Below are positions 20,252 through 29,389 of a stretch of 64,000 bases of DNA, piece after piece (position 1 is the first letter of the stretch; each line of letters starts with the position of its first letter). The position numbers were made by a program, and so were the translations under genes. This DNA comes from Escherichia coli (GTDB lineage Bacteria > Pseudomonadota > Gammaproteobacteria > Enterobacterales > Enterobacteriaceae). The notes beneath the pieces are model-generated. The model had not been told where the DNA came from. It worked only from the letters and a program-made list of their open reading frames with translations, and did not search any database. Location: the NCBI RefSeq assembly GCF_036507355.1, contig NZ_AP027877.1. One strand, 5' to 3'.

Positions 20252-21238
20252 TCACTTATTAAAATGCCCCCAACGGAAATACATGTCACATGCCATCATA
20301 AAATCGTTATGCCAGAGGAATCGACAATAGAAAAAATAGTAAATTAAGCACGGTACATAGCAGAGTAAAAAATAGGCTTCAAACCAAATCCGCCATTCCA
20401 CAAGCGTTGCCAATACCGACACCAGCGTAATCCACATCACTTCAATAACCAGCAATATGAATAACCGAAGCCAAAGCGGCTTGGCAAAAAAGGTCGACAA
20501 CACATTTTCACTGGAGAAAAAGAGATCGATTTCCTGCAAAAAAAGCCTGCCCAAAAAAGCGTACCGCCTGGAGAAGCGCAGAAAAAACAGATTAATCGCC
20601 AACACTACGCCACAAAGAATGAGCAATGCAATTATCGATTTAAACGTTAACCACTGCCCCTCTATCACAAAAGAATCACTGTTACGCAACGGGCTGATAG
20701 TAAGCAGGTTAACAACCGTTGAGATGCACACCGAAAGCAGCACATAGCGAGTCAGACTTCTATATTTTACTTTTTTCGCTACTGAAATAGCGACCTGCTT
20801 GACATAACTGGTGCGGATCATCCGAAACAGCAGAAAGATAACCAACGGCCCAAGTAACGAAATCAGGAACAGCGTATATAACGAGGGTAGAAGCTGGTAT
20901 AGCCCCCAACTCATTGCACTCAACATGATTAACGACAGAAATCCTGCCACCAGAGGTTGTGTAAGAAATAATTCTATTTTGTGGTTCTGCTTTTTCTTAA
21001 ACCACGAAAAATCGATATTCTTCGTGACGCATTTATAAGCCCAGTACGCCTTGAGATCAAAAATAAAATTATACAGCACCAGGGCCAGAATCCCACTAAC
21101 GACACCAATATCCTCTGATGGAAAAGTAAATCCTGCATTTTTCCAATAAAAGCCTATCAGAATAAGTCCAATAGCATAAATGTATATCAGACTTCGTTTA
21201 TCCTGAAAGCGAATAAAAGTTAAATAATCAGGAATCAT
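20252..21238 (-). CDS. ycdU: polytopic inner-membrane protein YcdU; last gene of the accessory operon
   Basis: 328-aa multi-TM ORF, AT-rich; start overlaps the upstream gene's stop by 4 nt. Confidence 0.85.
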
Positions 21239-22179
21239 TTGAATACCTTCGCATCACTAAATGCTTTACGACAATGCATAACTCGTTGCTGATCCACGCC
21301 AGCGAAATCATTTAACATATTCCCCAAATAGGGCTTATTACTTATTTCAAGGAAAGCTACCGAGGTTGGCATATTCAGAAATGTATCGAGAGATTCAGTC
21401 CATTTCACCGTATGAGTTAAGTGTAATGAGAGATTTTCTTTGATAATTGACGGAGCGACCTCGCTTTTTGCTGTTACGTTCATCAGAACCTGATGCTCTG
21501 GCGAAGCGATATCCAGTCCGGCAAGATAATCGCGCATTGCCTGAACGCCGTCTTCCATCAAACGCGTGTGCCAGGCACCGCTCACACCGAGTTTAACCGG
21601 TTCGTATCCAGCGGCCATCAGCAGCGTGGCAAATTCATTCAACGCAGCCTGCGTTCCCCCAATAACCTGCTGGCGCGGCGTGTTATCACAGCTAATATCC
21701 AGCGCAATGCCTGATTCCGTAATCATCGTCTGCAGTTGTTCGCGGTTGATGCCTTTAACCGCCAGCATTGCGCCTTTATTTCTCTGGCTTTCATCATGCA
21801 TCAGGCTGGCTCTGAAGTGAATCATGCCAAATAGCGTCTCAAGAGAAATAGCTCCAGCGGCGTAGAGCGCACTGTATTCACCAACGCTGTGTCCGCAGGA
21901 GCCCACAACCGTTAAATTCTCAAGACGCTCGCGGCACAGGGTATAGAGCGTTACATTAATTGCGGTCACCGCCAGTTGTTGTACCGTCGTTTGAATAAGG
22001 CGATTCATCGGCCCTTTCTGACACAGGCGACGCAGGTTCAGTCCGGAAATATCGCTGGCACAATCCCAGATATGTTTTGTACTGGCGTTGAGATCCCAAA
22101 GATCGCTGCCCATACCAATAACCGGATTACCCTGACCGGCAAAAAGCAGTACTGTCGGTTGTGAAGCATTATTCATCAT
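21235..22179 (-). CDS. ymdE: FabD-like malonyl-CoA:ACP transacylase-family acyltransferase (intact counterpart of the K-12 ymdE fragment)
   Basis: N-terminal [14 protein letters not shown] and active-site GHSVGE motifs; 314 aa. Confidence 0.8.
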
Positions 22180-22189
22180 CTCTTTATCC

Positions 22190-23578
22190 TTATAGATAGT
22201 ATTTAAAGCCCAAATAAAGGCCTAACGTGTCGCCAAAAAGCGCAAATTCAGAATACCGACTTCCCAGCGCGCTATAGCCACCGGCATAGGCTTCAAGCTG
22301 GTTACTGATAGCACTGAGCGGCGTGGAATAATGCAGGCCCAGCAACGTGCTGCCATCAATGAGATTGACCACCAGCGAAGGCTGCAGCGTCGACTCTCCC
22401 GACAGCGGCAGACTGACCCAGGCGTTCAGATAGTGCTTACCCTGCAGCATCCCCTGATTGGCGGTATTGCTGATTTCTGAAGCCATCAGGTATTTGTAAG
22501 AATCAAATGCCTGATCCAGTGGCGCATAGCCGGTTGTGGTATTGAGGAAGTCAATTAACTCGCGCTGCTGACGCTGTTCAGCGCGCGAATAACCCTCGCT
22601 CTGAAAGTAATACTCAACGCCAAACACGCTGAAATTATCACTGGTGTACTGCCCACCCAGCGCCAGCTCCACGCCGCTTTCATCTTTCGTTTCATAGAGC
22701 GAATCCGGAAACTGATATTCCTCGACCTGCGCCGTCTCACGGTGGGAAAGATGCCGCCATTGCTGGGAGCGGTGGTAGGCTGCGTCGACATTCAGCGTAA
22801 GCTGCGGGGTGTAGTGATAACTGTCAGACAGCGCGAGTGACGGCGATGGTCCGAGCCGCACATTGACTGTCGGCGTGTGCTCACCAAAGCGATGATCGCT
22901 GAAGCTCAGCAGATAGGCTTCGTCGCTGTTTCCCTGCTGATTAGCCGACCAGTTGCCAGACGTCACATAGCGTTTGTCGATGGTGGCTAACTTCGGTATG
23001 ACACTCGCCGAAAACGCATAATCGCGTGTATCCACGCTCATTTTTGCGCCCCACGATGACGCCTGATACGCCGATGTCATTTTGGGATCGTGCAAACGCG
23101 TCGACTGGAATCCGGTGTAATAATGCGTTTGCAAATCAGAAGGCGAACGCAAAAAGAACATTCCTGACGGCGCGGCAAATTTGCCTGCTTCAAATTGAAT
23201 GCTGTCCGAGGCACTATAGACCAGACTGAGGCGGTTAATTAACGCACGCGTGCGGCTATCATCCGTTTCGAATTTCCCTGCGGGTTTAAGCGCATATTCG
23301 TTTATTCCATACAGATTGAGCTTAAGGTCCAGCGTATTGTCGATTATCGAACAACCACTGTTGATGCCAATCCCCGCCTCCTGATAACCGTTGTGACGAG
23401 TGTAGGGATTTTTGCCTGCAATCTGCCAGGCCGAAGCCTGTTTATTGACATAAGACACCTGCTCGTAAAGCGTCACATCGCTGTTTTGTGCCACCTCGTC
23501 ACCTGACAGGCAATCCGCCTGTACCGTCAACGGCAGCGCAACACACAGCAACGAAGAGATCTTCAGCGTACGTTTCAT
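22190..23578 (-). CDS. putative outer-membrane beta-barrel protein
   Basis: 462 aa, signal peptide MKRTLKISSLLCVALPLTVQA, alternating amphipathic segments rich in Y/G/S; coupled to flanking genes. Confidence 0.6.
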   Translation of the reverse strand: MKRTLKISSLLCVALPLTVQADCLSGDEVAQNSDVTLYEQVSYVNKQASAWQIAGKNPYTRHNGYQEAGIGINSGCSIIDNTLDLKLNLYGINEYALKPAGKFETDDSRTRALINRLSLVYSASDSIQFEAGKFAAPSGMFFLRSPSDLQTHYYTGFQSTRLHDPKMTSAYQASSWGAKMSVDTRDYAFSASVIPKLATIDKRYVTSGNWSANQQGNSDEAYLLSFSDHRFGEHTPTVNVRLGPSPSLALSDSYHYTPQLTLNVDAAYHRSQQWRHLSHRETAQVEEYQFPDSLYETKDESGVELALGGQYTSDNFSVFGVEYYFQSEGYSRAEQRQQRELIDFLNTTTGYAPLDQAFDSYKYLMASEISNTANQGMLQGKHYLNAWVSLPLSGESTLQPSLVVNLIDGSTLLGLHYSTPLSAISNQLEAYAGGYSALGSRYSEFALFGDTLGLYLGFKYYL

Positions 23579-27441: not shown

Positions 27442-27945
27442 TTATTGATAGTGTTTTATGTTCAGATAATGCCCGATGACTTTGTCATGCAGCTCCACCG
27501 ATTTTGAGAACGACAGCGACTTCCGTCCCAGCCGTGCCAGGTGCTGCCTCAGATTCAGGTTATGCCGCTCAATTCGCTGCGTATATCGCTTGCTGATTAC
27601 GTGCAGCTTTCCCTTCAGGCGGGATTCATACAGCGGCCAGCCATCCGTCATCCATATCACCACGTCAAAGGGTGACAGCAGGCTCATAAGACGCCCCAGC
27701 GTCGCCATAGTGCGTTCACCGAATACGTGCGCAACAACCGTCTTCCGGAGCCTGTCATACGCGTAAAACAGCCAGCGCTGGCGCGATTTAGCCCCGACAT
27801 AGCCCCACTGTTCGTCCATTTCCGCGCAGACGATGACGTCACTGCCCGGCTGTATGCGCGAGGTTACCGACTGCGGCCTGAGTTTTTTAAGTGACGTAAA
27901 ATCGTGTTGAGGCCAACGCCCATAATGCGGGCTGTTGCCCGGCAT
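27442..27945 (-). CDS. insB: IS1 InsB
   Basis: Identical to the copy 1 InsB. Confidence 0.9.
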
Positions 27946-28139
27946 CCAACGCCATTCATGGCCATATCAATGATTTTCTGGTGCGTACCGGGTTGAGAAG
28001 CGGTGTAAGTGAACTGCAGTTGCCATGTTTTACGACAGTGAGAGCAGAGATAGCGCTGATGTCCGGCGGTGCTTTTGCCGTTACGCACCACCCCGTCAGT
28101 AGCTGAACAGGAGGGACAGCTGATAGAAACAGAAGCCAC
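27864..28139 (-). CDS. insA: IS1 InsA
   Basis: Identical to the copy 1 InsA. Confidence 0.95.
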
Positions 28140-28189
28140 TGGAGCACCTCAAAAACACCATCATACACTAAATCAGTAAGTTGGCAGCA

Positions 28190-29389
28190 TCACCCATTTT
28201 TAATATGTAAAACATCAGCAACAAAATCAGGATGTGCAAGATGCTCCGCGGCAATATTTATCCCAAGGTGAAACGGCTTTTTCACTTTCCAGCTTTGTAC
28301 ATCCTGAATAATCAGTTCAAAGAGATGCTTAGTTAACGGTATAATTAAATTTTCCTCTTCTGCAGCGCGGATAAAAACTACCGGAGATATATTTTTACCA
28401 TCTTCGCGTTGCCAACGCATTAACGCTTCAACCCCCAGACACTCTTTTGTTGTCGTGTCATATACTGGTTGATAATGCACTGAAAATTCTCCAGATGACA
28501 TTCCTTTTTTAATTTCTTCTGCCAGGGACATTTTTCGAGATATCCAGCGCTGCCATAAGAAGTACAGGATAAAAGAAAGAAGAATAGATAATGGAAGAAT
28601 GTAAAACACATTACTAATGACATAGGGATATAATGAAATTATCGGCGTAGTAACTGTAAGACTAGCCTGACTGATCGCAGAATTAAAATCTTTTTTTAAC
28701 ATATATAACTTGTCATTATTATTTACACCACTAATAATTGCAGGCCCTTCAGTAAAGCTAAGAGAAAATGAATCATCATTCTCATCATCAAGAACATCCA
28801 TTAGATCATAGATATATCGTGACTCTACAATACTAAAAGCTGTCATATCATTCCCTATTGGCATAAGGAATACTATGGCTGTTTTACCTGGTACAAAACT
28901 TGTACCGCTAATGGATACTATGCGTGATTCTTTATTTTTATTGTGAAAGCTCGTACCGTAAACATCGTTAACATTCATTTTTTTGAAACCGCTAACTGAA
29001 GAACATATTTGGAAATTATTTTCTATAAGACCCGTTGTTCGAACATAGGGAGTCAATGCTCCGTTAGCAATCAACTGTTCAAGAATGTCTTTGCAGGGCT
29101 TCATCACCAGAATAGAGGTAAGCTTTGTCGTATGCTGGACAATTTGCGTAACATTATCAAGCTGTTTTAACAGAATACCGGCGGTAATTGTCGTATCTCT
29201 ATTCATTTGAAATATTGACATAGCAAACGATAGTAACACCCCCAGAATGCCTGGTATTATAATGAGTACAAACATTTTTTTGTTGAATACCATACATGTT
29301 TCCCCACGCATCAGGGTGATGCAACCTAAGAAATTATAGTACAATTGCCAGTAAAAGCGGGTGATAGCAGACTGATCAATGATAAGCAT
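28190..29389 (-). pseudogene. pdeT: CSS-motif periplasmic-sensor EAL-domain c-di-GMP phosphodiesterase (PdeT/VmpA-like), C-terminally truncated by IS1
   Basis: TM + periplasmic domain + TM, then EAL domain start (QPVYDT...GVEALMRW); ends ~100 aa into the EAL domain with a stop supplied by the IS1 terminus. Confidence 0.65.

Follow-up and report, generated by a model that had tools for sequence, protein, structure and literature searches.

An IS1-scarred 3′ remnant of the 17-gene operon of O-island 47 in an Escherichia coli genome

Aryl-polyene (APE) clusters contain a KS/CLF pair, a ketoreductase, a dehydratase and a LolA-superfamily carrier, and they lack an enoyl reductase. LolCDE is a member of the type VII ABC mechanotransmission family, as are MacB and DevCA. 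Components resembling both systems are encoded together at the right end of O-island 47 (OI-47) of E. coli O157:H7. The island has been documented before (PMC8565820, PMC10877973), also as S-loop 71, and includes the OtpA/OtpB two-partner secretion system (bioRxiv 10.1101/2020.04.13.038984). The function of its otpAB genes (ECs1282-1283) is described as unknown (PMC5422565; bioRxiv 10.1101/2020.04.13.038984), and in 2022 ECs_1284-1289 were flagged by antiSMASH within an aryl-polyene-type cluster (PMC9205054), so that the existence of the cluster has already been published. For the biosynthetic and export genes, no product, transcript or phenotype was reported in the literature searched, in agreement with an earlier sequence-only reading of the present locus, according to which no function is established.

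The window, a 64,000-nt stretch of E. coli DNA, contains a promoterless, IS1-scarred 3′ remnant of this 17-gene operon. It is the same locus as OI-47/S-loop 71 (z1528-z1556; ECs1272-1298), with which it also shares the flanking genes pdeT and serX, and its genes share 98–99% DNA identity with the island's right end as it occurs in E. coli O55:H7 CB9615. The right boundary is the plus-strand serX gene (19972–20059), a tRNA-Ser(GGA) detected by ARAGORN and by the Rfam tRNA model (53.8 bits). Between serX and pdeT/dgcT, a co-directional string of genes is found on the minus strand, and the tight coupling claimed for it, with overlaps of 4–17 nt, was verified. The terminal gene of the operon, ycdU (20252–21238), encodes a polytopic inner-membrane protein of 328 aa and overlaps by 4 nt with the gene for a FabD-like malonyl-CoA:ACP transacylase with a GHSVGE motif (21235–22179). 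The latter is preceded by the gene for a 462-aa outer-membrane beta-barrel with a Sec signal peptide (22190–23578), which overlaps by 4 nt with a gene for a LolA-like carrier (PF17131). This carrier gene is split into a 3′ part (23575–24242, about codons 41–262; collinear with CB9615 locus L003 38958-39625) and a 5′ part (25011–25140, codons 1 to about 44; L003 38837-38966). Further upstream follow the genes for a LolC/E-like type VII ABC permease of 436 aa with FtsX and MacB_PCD domains (25149–26459) and for a secreted periplasmic protein of 218 aa (26460–27116), which is translationally coupled to the permease and ATPase genes. The LolD-like ABC ATPase gene overlaps the 218-aa gene by 17 nt, and only its codons 128–235 are present (27100–27426; L003 36551-36877). 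The ATPase had been correctly recognized as such, but not as an incomplete gene that has lost its Walker A motif. All other open reading frames of the operon apart from the carrier gene are intact. The adjacent minus-strand segment 28195–29389 (L003 9968-11162) is the 5′ remnant of pdeT/vmpA, with 398 of 536 codons of an EAL phosphodiesterase; it is annotated as pdeT or as an EAL protein in intact strains, lies outside the operon, and forms the left boundary of a deletion. Because this segment is pdeT and the ATPase is a remnant, the window contains seven operon genes, five of them intact, and not eight as had been counted.

The locus harbors two IS1 copies of 768 bp, which are 100% identical and inverted to one another. 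IS1-A (24243–25010, plus strand), recognized from its inverted repeat pair and its insA and insB reading frames, lies inside the carrier gene and is flanked by a 9-bp target duplication, TATTCGGCG, at 24234–24242 and 25011–25019, so that the last 9 bp of the 3′ part of the carrier gene are the duplicated target. IS1-A is thus a simple insertion that has split the gene in two. No target duplication was found in the sequence around IS1-B (27427–28194, minus strand). A blastn comparison with CB9615 showed that IS1-B occupies the place of 25,388 bp of the intact locus (L003 11163-36550), and apart from this gap the window is collinear with CB9615, without indels. Lost with it are the end of pdeT, grvA, the fimbrial operon loc6, otpAB, eight genes for biosynthesis and, in the ATPase gene, codons 1–127 including Walker A. 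The IS1-B junction was found in none of 5,426 complete E. coli genomes. What inactivated the locus was therefore the insertion of one IS1 together with a 25.4-kb deletion associated with the other, and not a single IS1, as had been proposed. Compared with OI-47, only the last 7.5 kb of the operon remain, interrupted by the two IS1 copies. With the promoter region, otpAB, Walker A and all biosynthetic genes except that for the FabD-like acyltransferase gone and the carrier gene interrupted, the system in this window is non-functional.

An IS-free copy of the dgcT–serX interval, for which a search had been suggested, exists for example in O55:H7 CB9615. The intact locus starts with otpA and otpB, followed by acpS and the genes for a FabG-like ketoreductase, a FabZ/ApeI-like dehydratase, an ACP, a GcvT-like protein, an 852-aa KS-CLF didomain protein, a divergent third KS (KS3) and a 317-aa protein of unknown function. 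Then come the LolD-like ATPase, the 218-aa periplasmic protein, the LolC/E-like permease, the PF17131 carrier, the 18-strand barrel, the FabD-like acyltransferase and YcdU. Distances from otpA to ycdU range from −17 to +88 bp, and this spacing suggests that the genes form one tightly coupled, co-transcribed operon.

The order from ACP to YcdU (ACP-GcvT-KSKS-KS3-317aa-ABC-218aa-FtsX-LolA-like-barrel-AT-YcdU) was the same in 27 loci from Enterobacterales, Aeromonas, Acinetobacter, Orbaceae and one strain labelled Neisseria, and in about 30 loci overall no change of gene order was seen. Wherever the export genes were examined, they formed the 3′ half of a biosynthetic operon of the type II PKS/FAS-like kind, with a two-partner secretion pair in front of it. 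In these loci, down to relatives of 29% identity, not a single case of export genes on their own was found; they follow KS/ACP genes in one string. The tpsA-tpsB pair is located 15–23 bp upstream of acpS in 7/7 genera examined, and a full-length comparison of OtpA orthologs gave 50% identity. Of the 27 loci in which the position after the acyltransferase gene could be examined, 26 have an intact ycdU there, which bears out its assignment as the terminal gene. As had been stated, K-12 retains only the 3′ part of ymdE and ycdU (see also PMC4951805). Since this unit is a mobile island whose neighborhood changes from genus to genus, its adjacency to the pga and dgcT loci, which had been regarded as suggestive, is not indicative of function.

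The biosynthetic assignments were based on NCBIfam and Pfam domain calls. In the N-domain of the KS-CLF protein Cys/His/His are invariant, and the C-domain of 24 of 28 sequences has Glu in place of the Cys, a feature of chain-length factors. No domain call for an enoyl reductase, a thioesterase or an adenylating enzyme was obtained anywhere in the operon. The dehydratase gave weak ApeI-like Pfam matches. The acyltransferase, whose orthologs carry PF00698, is the full-length form of the K-12 pseudogene ymdE and reached 178.7 bits with the fabD model TIGR00128 (cut-off 260.9). The intact ATPase scored 228 bits with the LolD model TIGR02211 (cut-off 307.75), and the permease 92.9 bits with the lolCE model TIGR02212 (cut-off 362). 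Because all these matches stay under the curated cut-offs, the proteins are relatives and not equivalogs.

Four transmembrane segments are predicted for the permease, which also has a large periplasmic domain; its orthologs carry PF12704 and PF02687, and its PDB matches are LolE, LolF and LolC (E 3e-14 to 1e-7). The intact carrier matches PF17131, the LolA_like/TP_0789-like family (E 8.4e-36), and PDB 3BUU (NE2245; E 3e-34); its signal peptides are cleavable and of the non-lipoprotein type. The 218-aa protein, without a match in Pfam, NCBIfam or PDB, has cleavable signal peptides and two cysteines, C132 and C168, that are invariant in 29 orthologs. No lipobox was seen in carrier, 218-aa protein or barrel. 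The 462-aa protein has no Pfam match and models as an 18-strand barrel with a helical insert of about 45 residues (332–374). Only 59 relatives were found among 1.84 billion representatives, and the distant ones still lie within a PF17131-barrel-AT-YcdU-like-AcpS-KR-DH block. YcdU belongs to no Pfam or NCBIfam family, and its AF2 model (pLDDT 88) has no fold match in PDB. The originally proposed parts list holds, and the observation of the sequence-only reading was partly confirmed and its interpretation partly supported.

We consider it probable that the intact system, of which the window holds the remnant, builds a lipid without an enoyl reductase and carries it across the envelope in a Lol-like manner. 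AcpS would prime the dedicated ACP, the acyltransferase would supply malonyl units, and KS-CLF, ketoreductase and dehydratase would extend the chain iteratively without enoyl reduction, so that an unsaturated or hydroxylated long-chain acyl or polyketide lipid would be expected. Candidates for priming, tailoring or anchoring it are KS3, the GcvT-like protein and the 317-aa protein, perhaps together with YcdU. Assisted by the 218-aa protein in the periplasm, the type VII ABC transporter would extract the lipid from the inner membrane, the soluble LolA-like protein would ferry it through the periplasm, and the dedicated barrel would take it up at the outer membrane, where the co-expressed OtpA and OtpB may also act. 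Transport direction and substrate are suggested by the protein families and by where the genes lie, and so are the putative roles of KS3, YcdU and the GcvT-like, 218-aa and 317-aa proteins. Most Occ/OprD-like barrels serve uptake, which counts against export, notwithstanding the exporter AlgE. According to a review, expression of OtpB is sufficient for OtpA secretion (PMC5422565), which argues against a requirement of the lipid machinery for secretion itself.

One alternative is a private Lol pathway, in which OtpA or another protein receives an unusual acyl chain made by the synthase and is then moved in acylated form, in place of a free lipid, by ABC transporter, carrier and barrel. The linkage of otpAB to the operon in all seven genera, the lipoprotein extractors LolE, LolC and LolF as nearest solved relatives of the permease, and a detectable periplasmic OtpA intermediate (PMC5422565) are in accordance with it. 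Nevertheless, it appears unlikely, as a recognizable protein acyltransferase is absent from the operon, no lipobox was seen in the three proteins mentioned above, the carrier does not belong to the classical LolA family, and OtpA secretion reportedly requires OtpB only (PMC5422565). It is just as doubtful that the surviving barrel, full-length ymdE and ycdU keep a function of their own, which would account for the persistence of ymdE′-ycdU in many E. coli and for its marking of mastitis isolates. The ymdE′-ycdU remnant occurs in about 2,300 complete genomes without the rest of the operon, ymdE and ycdU were free of mutational decay in the mastitis study (PMC4951805), and neither stop codons nor indels occur in the remnant reading frames of the window. 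On the other hand, the remnants vary from lineage to lineage and stop at IS elements, a pattern of decay; orthologs of YcdU turned up solely at the end of this operon, the native promoter region is lost, and ycdU differs from CB9615 by six nonsynonymous and two synonymous changes, although these numbers are small.

A second canonical APE cluster, producing a pigment lipid as in E. coli CFT073 or by O157 S-loop 225, is rather improbable. The antiSMASH 6 label is aryl-polyene-type (PMC9205054), and the ApeI-like dehydratase matches point in the same direction. Both systems are type II synthases with a KS/CLF pair, a ketoreductase and a dehydratase, without an enoyl reductase and with a LolA-superfamily carrier. 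However, the highest SDR score against a flexirubin/APE-type model lies far under the cut-off (184 versus 340 bits), and no domain call in the operon indicated an aryl-starter adenylating enzyme, thioesterase, methyltransferase, lysophospholipid or lipid-anchor acyltransferase, glycosyltransferase, MMPL/RND exporter or DUF3261 protein. Conversely, the operon's GcvT-like protein, type VII ABC transporter, dedicated barrel, YcdU and otpAB are not known from APE clusters. Very improbable, and already contradicted by the comparison with intact strains, is an independent accessory operon for envelope export, with about eight genes, an acylated lipid or lipoprotein-like cargo made elsewhere and one IS1 knockout: its export-type parts are real and its genes tightly coupled, but KS/ACP genes precede them in all loci examined, the upstream half is demonstrably deleted in the window, two IS1 copies are present, and the ATPase is truncated. 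The genes had been noted as an export operon, whereas they are part of the cluster already recorded on OI-47/S-loop 71 and flagged as biosynthetic (PMC9205054).

Like the route proposed here, the ApeL/ApeM/ApeN export module of APE clusters ties a LolA-superfamily carrier to lipid delivery at the outer membrane, whereas the motor in this operon is a MacB/Lol-type ABC transporter, and the operon also brings in an 18-strand barrel of its own, YcdU, a GcvT-like protein and a two-partner secretion pair. As in LolCDE-LolA, the ATPase is nearest to LolD, the permease to LolE/LolC/LolF, and a gene for a soluble LolA-superfamily carrier adjoins. In contrast to LolCDE-LolA, the scores are far under the equivalog cut-offs of the LolD and LolCE models, a single permease gene takes the place of two, an extra 218-aa periplasmic subunit is present, the carrier is of the PF17131 family, the outer-membrane partner is a barrel and not the lipoprotein LolB, and the genes lie within an operon for a lipid synthase. 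Occ/OprD porins and the alginate exporter AlgE are also 18-strand monomeric barrels; the 462-aa barrel is only 7–11% identical to them, is distinguished by its helical insert, and represents a family that is confined to this operon type.

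The string of genes under study lies between the tRNA-Ser (GGA) gene serX (19972–20059) on one flank and dgcT (29487–30968) on the other. On the minus strand it comprises ycdU (20252–21238), a gene for a FabD-like acyltransferase (21235–22179), the gene for a 462-aa protein modeled as an 18-strand outer-membrane beta-barrel (22190–23578; the barrel), a LolA-like gene in two pieces (23575–24242 and 25011–25140), an FtsX-type permease gene (25149–26459), the gene for a 218-aa protein (26460–27116), and the remnant of an ABC ATPase gene, of which only the final 108 codons are left (27100–27426). 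On the far side of an IS element lie codons 1–398 of a gene for an EAL-domain protein, likewise on the minus strand (28195–29389); this gene is pdeT/vmpA of the island described below. Domain and homology searches showed that the sequence-only reading had named most parts of the string rightly, and the ORF coordinates confirmed the overlaps of 4 and 17 nt that it had listed. A scan of 19800–29600 for promoters and terminators gave counts at chance level, which were not used. Of the 536 codons of pdeT, 398 remain, and its neighbors dgcT and pgaA look intact; the strain may thus have lost one c-di-GMP-degrading enzyme beside the PGA biofilm locus.

The same reading had taken the string for a self-contained export operon of eight genes, and comparison with an intact strain showed that a biosynthetic operon has this string as no more than its rear half. 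In the O55:H7 strain CB9615, the stretch that begins with pdeT and ends at serX measures about 31 kb. Behind pdeT it contains, in this order, a small gene, genes for a winged-helix regulator and an SDR, an operon for chaperone-usher fimbriae, and 17 co-directional genes, whose spacing varies between an overlap of 17 nt and a gap of 88 bp. The 17 genes encode a filamentous-haemagglutinin-type exoprotein (otpA), a ShlB/FhaC-type transporter (otpB), AcpS, an SDR, a FabZ-like dehydratase, an ACP, an aminomethyltransferase-family protein, an 852-aa ketosynthase, a 407-aa ketosynthase (KS3), a 317-aa hypothetical protein, the ABC ATPase, the 218-aa protein, the permease, the LolA-like protein, the 462-aa protein, the acyltransferase, and YcdU. 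The view of ycdU as a terminal gene left orphaned was borne out, as it is the last of the 17 genes in the intact string.

Direct alignment to the CB9615 locus (L003) revealed how the window copy was broken. Positions 19199–24242 correspond to L003 38958–44001 (99.2% identity, no gaps), 25011–27426 to L003 36551–38966 (98.4% identity, no gaps), and 28195–32000 to L003 7359–11162 (97.2% identity). Therefore, 25,388 bp are missing from the window, a deletion that had been overlooked, and an IS1 copy (IS1-B, 27427–28194) stands in their place. Instead of the single IS1 reported before, two copies are present, the other (IS1-A) at 24243–25010. The deletion cut into two genes, removing the 3′ end of pdeT and codons 1–127 of the ATPase gene, including Walker A, and it also took away the regulator and fimbrial genes, otpAB, and eight biosynthetic genes. 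The surviving ORFs contain no new stop codons, and their differences from CB9615 are mostly synonymous. The ycdU gene, with six nonsynonymous and two synonymous codon differences, deviates from the mostly synonymous pattern of the other remnant genes; the numbers are small, and constraint on ycdU may be relaxed.

IS1 elements are characterized by a length of 768 bp, terminal inverted repeats, insA and insB' ORFs, and a 9-bp target duplication upon simple insertion. Both window elements are 768 bp long, carry InsA and InsB ORFs, share the termini GGTGATGCTGCC... and ...GGAGTCATTACC, and are 100% identical and in inverted orientation. IS1-A is flanked by the 9-bp direct duplication TATTCGGCG, which shows that it arose by simple insertion into the LolA-like gene. 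A target duplication is absent at IS1-B, which is the pattern expected for an IS1-associated deletion. The two copies are the only long repeats in the whole 64 kb. The 2,416 bp between them hold the ATPase remnant, the 218-aa gene, the permease gene, and the 5′ end of the LolA-like gene, and the inverted pair resembles a composite transposon that could invert or move; at present, the segment is in the ancestral orientation. Megablast found the overall arrangement of the window in none of 5,426 complete E. coli RefSeq genomes, and in many O157:H7 and O55:H7 genomes the sequence runs on beyond the position of IS1-B. The ATPase-IS1 junction is likewise absent from all 5,426, which places the genome of the window outside this set. 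The window copy cannot carry out synthesis or export.

The island was identified as O-island 47 by its position between pdeT (z1528) and serX and its collinearity with the published island (PMC8565820), with the window and CB9615 97–99% identical and free of gaps on both sides of the deletion. O-island 47 of EDL933 (z1528–z1556, 31.7 kb) is the S-loop 71 of Sakai and also carries the ToxR-like regulator GrvA and the loc6 fimbriae (PMC8565820; PMC10877973; bioRxiv 10.1101/2020.04.13.038984). The cluster is already catalogued in O157:H7. The OtpA/OtpB two-partner secretion system (ECs1282–1283) was listed with unknown function in a 2017 review (PMC5422565), and the genes downstream of otpAB are called only "fatty-acid synthesis genes" in the island literature. 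According to a pangenome paper of 2022, antiSMASH assigns ECs_1284–1289 to a cluster of the aryl-polyene type (PMC9205054). In a mastitis study, ymdE and ycdU were uncharacterized markers, with a 945-bp ymdE outside phylogroup A (PMC4951805). The literature searched, which lay outside the original OtpAB papers, assigned no product or function to the biosynthetic and export genes, mentioned the island locus tags only in catalogue-type form, and yielded no publication linking LolA or LolA-like proteins, ketosynthases or polyketides, aminomethyltransferases, and FtsX.

Domain searches identified the early genes of the operon as encoding a holo-ACP synthase (AcpS), a FabG-like ketoreductase (the SDR), a FabZ-like and weakly ApeI-like dehydratase, and an acyl carrier protein. 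The acyltransferase carries PF00698 and the sequence GHSVGE, which fits the GHSxG active-site motif, and scored 178.7 bits with the FabD model TIGR00128 (cut-off 260.9), which, judged by sequence, places it in the FabD superfamily. A KS-CLF combines a thiolase-fold unit that has a Cys-His-His triad with a partner that lacks the active-site cysteine, and the 852-aa protein is a fusion of the two. The triad of its N-terminal domain is invariant in 28 of 28 orthologs, and in its C-terminal domain the cysteine position is occupied by Glu (24/28) or Gln (2/28) and the first His is absent. KS3 (L003 33986–35209) retains the Cys and the first His, and the second His is replaced by a Tyr that is invariant in all 29 orthologs. 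The aminomethyltransferase-family (GcvT-like) protein (L003 30189–31349) is a true T-protein homologue (PDB 1WOO, E 1e-24). This glycine-cleavage T-protein homologue is conserved within the operon, and neither it nor the altered KS3 has an obvious role. The domain calls of the 17-gene operon include no enoyl reductase, thioesterase, or adenylating enzyme. The 317-aa, 218-aa, and 462-aa proteins and YcdU matched no Pfam or NCBIfam family, a Pfam search with all 27 YcdU orthologs likewise gave none, and PDB sequence searches with the four proteins returned no significant match. A degenerate thiolase fold was considered for the 317-aa protein and found no support, with an hhalign probability against KS3 of 1.7%.

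The export proteins resemble known transporter parts to different degrees. The ATPase is LolD-like (TIGR02211, 228.3 bits, cut-off 307.75) and the permease LolC/E-like (TIGR02212, 92.9 bits, cut-off 362.45), and both stay below the NCBIfam curated whole-protein cut-offs for the LolD and LolC/E equivalogs. In the PDB, the permease matched LolE, LolF, and LolC (E 1e-14 to 1e-7) and also YtrF, FtsX, and MacB. Type VII ABC transporters combine an FtsX transmembrane domain and a MacB-type periplasmic domain with an ABC ATPase partner, and this composition was found as PF02687 and PF12704 in the permease orthologs and PF00005 in the adjoining ATPase. From these scores and domains, the two proteins are judged to be relatives within the type VII ABC superfamily and not housekeeping Lol proteins. 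The LolA-like carrier matched PF17131 (LolA_like, now TP_0789-like; E 8.4e-36) over model positions 2–184 of 184, and PDB 3BUU, the LolA-superfamily protein NE2245, with E 3.3e-34. Cleavable signal peptides were found family-wide in the LolA-like and the 218-aa proteins, with no conserved lipobox. The motif 'LATSC' of the E. coli LolA-like protein resembles a lipobox, but its Cys is not conserved, and a cleaved signal peptide is preferred to a lipoprotein. The 218-aa protein has two cysteines that are invariant in the ortholog alignment.

The secretion pair is absent from the window. In a type Vb system, a TpsA with an N-terminal TPS domain and a TpsB with POTRA and ShlB domains are encoded side by side. 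TIGR01901 was detected in OtpA and its orthologs, and PF05860 as well as PF08479, PF17287, and PF03865 at the tpsA-tpsB loci of seven genera. In all seven genera that could be read upstream (E. coli, Acinetobacter, Rahnella, Kosakonia, Aeromonas, a "Neisseria sp." strain, and Utexia), tpsA and tpsB directly precede acpS, with gaps of 15–23 bp, and the DNA farther upstream differs in each genome. As the pair is constant and the DNA beyond it variable, the conserved mobile unit comprises 17 genes. The OtpA proteins of E. coli and Acinetobacter share 50% identity over their full length. Relative to its orthologs, E. coli OtpA (L003 22619–26431, 1,270 aa) contains an internal duplication of about 420 aa; the proteins of Acinetobacter, Rahnella, Utexia, and the Neisseria-labeled strain have about 850 aa, and the Aeromonas copy has 1,288 aa. 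In every genus examined, about 0.65–1.4 kb 5′ of otpA are non-coding (L003 21229–22618; around 2700–3690 in the comparison loci L035, L036, L037, L041, L042, and L043), and the DNA farther away is unrelated. This stretch may hold a promoter or regulatory element of the 17-gene unit.

The distribution of the operon was analyzed starting from the barrel family, a very small one, for which a word-indexed search gave 86 clusters and a full HMM search 59 at E ≤ 1e-3 among 1.84 billion representatives; a scan of 100,044 species genomes gave 25 loci. The gene order from ACP to ycdU is identical in 27 loci, from Enterobacter, Kosakonia, Klebsiella, Mixta, Rahnella, Leclercia, Silvania, Izhakiella, Serratia, Buttiauxella, Tenebrionibacter, Aeromonas, Acinetobacter, Utexia, and a strain labeled Neisseria, and a full-length ycdU ORF lies 3′ of the acyltransferase gene in 26 loci. 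Distant variants, in Paraburkholderia silviterrae (L032) and three metagenomic contigs (L038–L040), still encode a PF17131 protein, the barrel, the acyltransferase, and a protein resembling YcdU (hhalign probability 87%), next to AcpS, ketoreductase, and dehydratase. In one of them, an additional SDR gene separates the permease gene from the carrier gene, and in others the block of carrier, barrel, acyltransferase, and YcdU-like genes stands ahead of the acpS, ketoreductase, and dehydratase genes. Export genes without synthase genes were not seen among the loci examined. The barrel gene occurs in only five plasmid records, some of them probably mislabeled chromosome pieces, and no evidence pointed to plasmids as the main vehicle.

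Among the 5,426 complete E. coli genomes, 381 contain 80% or more of the 15-gene stretch acpS–ycdU, and 2,668 contain some piece of this region, mostly the K-12-type remnant, which is the last third of ymdE, the acyltransferase pseudogene, plus ycdU. The points of damage differ: IS1 joins a fragment of the LolA-like gene to a grvA fragment in Combat11I9 and 23CRST011, IS1 lies within ycdU in O157:H16 Santai, and IS3 lies in ymdE in K-12 (PMC4951805). The island has thus decayed recurrently, with IS elements breaking it independently in several cases, and what is left of it in the window is one of these dead remnants.

The analysis established which genes are present, how tightly they are coupled, that their order is conserved, which fold the barrel has, and which families the transporter parts resemble; the following steps are proposed for the intact operon. 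AcpS would prime the dedicated ACP, and the acyltransferase would load it. KS-CLF, ketoreductase, and dehydratase would build a chain that would be left unsaturated or hydroxylated because the operon has no enoyl reductase, and KS3, the 317-aa protein, and the GcvT-like protein would prime or tailor it. Lol and MacB-type machines pull substrates from the inner membrane; likewise, the type VII ABC transporter and its 218-aa periplasmic partner would take the lipid out of this membrane, the soluble PF17131 protein would ferry it through the periplasm, and the barrel would accept it in the outer membrane. Possible tasks of YcdU are flipping, anchoring, or modification of the product. The constant fusion of otpAB to the operon argues that the lipid and a secreted beta-helical protein act together. 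Tentatively, and with clearly less than even confidence, we propose an unrecognized surface system in which OtpA, a beta-helical protein secreted by the two-partner route, is joined by a dedicated lipid from a type II synthase without enoyl reductase that travels a private Lol-like route of type VII ABC transporter, new 218-aa periplasmic subunit, PF17131 carrier, and new barrel family; the lipid could be the activator, anchor, or cargo of OtpA, and ymdE and ycdU of K-12 would be the last vestige of the system.

Two long unexplained K-12 genes are thereby accounted for: ymdE and ycdU represent the 3′ end of a large operon of the island and form no unit of their own. OtpAB of O157:H7 is now linked to a lipid synthase and a Lol-like exporter in at least seven genera, which provides a testable hypothesis for both. 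The barrel, YcdU, the 218-aa subunit, and the 317-aa protein represent families without known relatives and would be entry points to a new kind of lipid movement across the Gram-negative envelope.

Aryl-polyene (APE) clusters carry KS/CLF, ketoreductase, and dehydratase together with an adenylating starter enzyme, a thioesterase, a lysophospholipid acyltransferase, a glycosyltransferase, an MMPL exporter, and DUF3261. Domain calls for the 17 genes from eight genera included none of the latter six, and the operon is therefore not a canonical APE cluster. Common to both are only the KS/CLF, the ketoreductase, the weakly ApeI-like dehydratase, the ACP, and a LolA-superfamily carrier. In its proposed working, the operon resembles both the Lol pathway and the idea of aryl-polyene export, but it belongs to neither group. 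It is a distinct variant within the lipid clusters that combine a synthase with a carrier.
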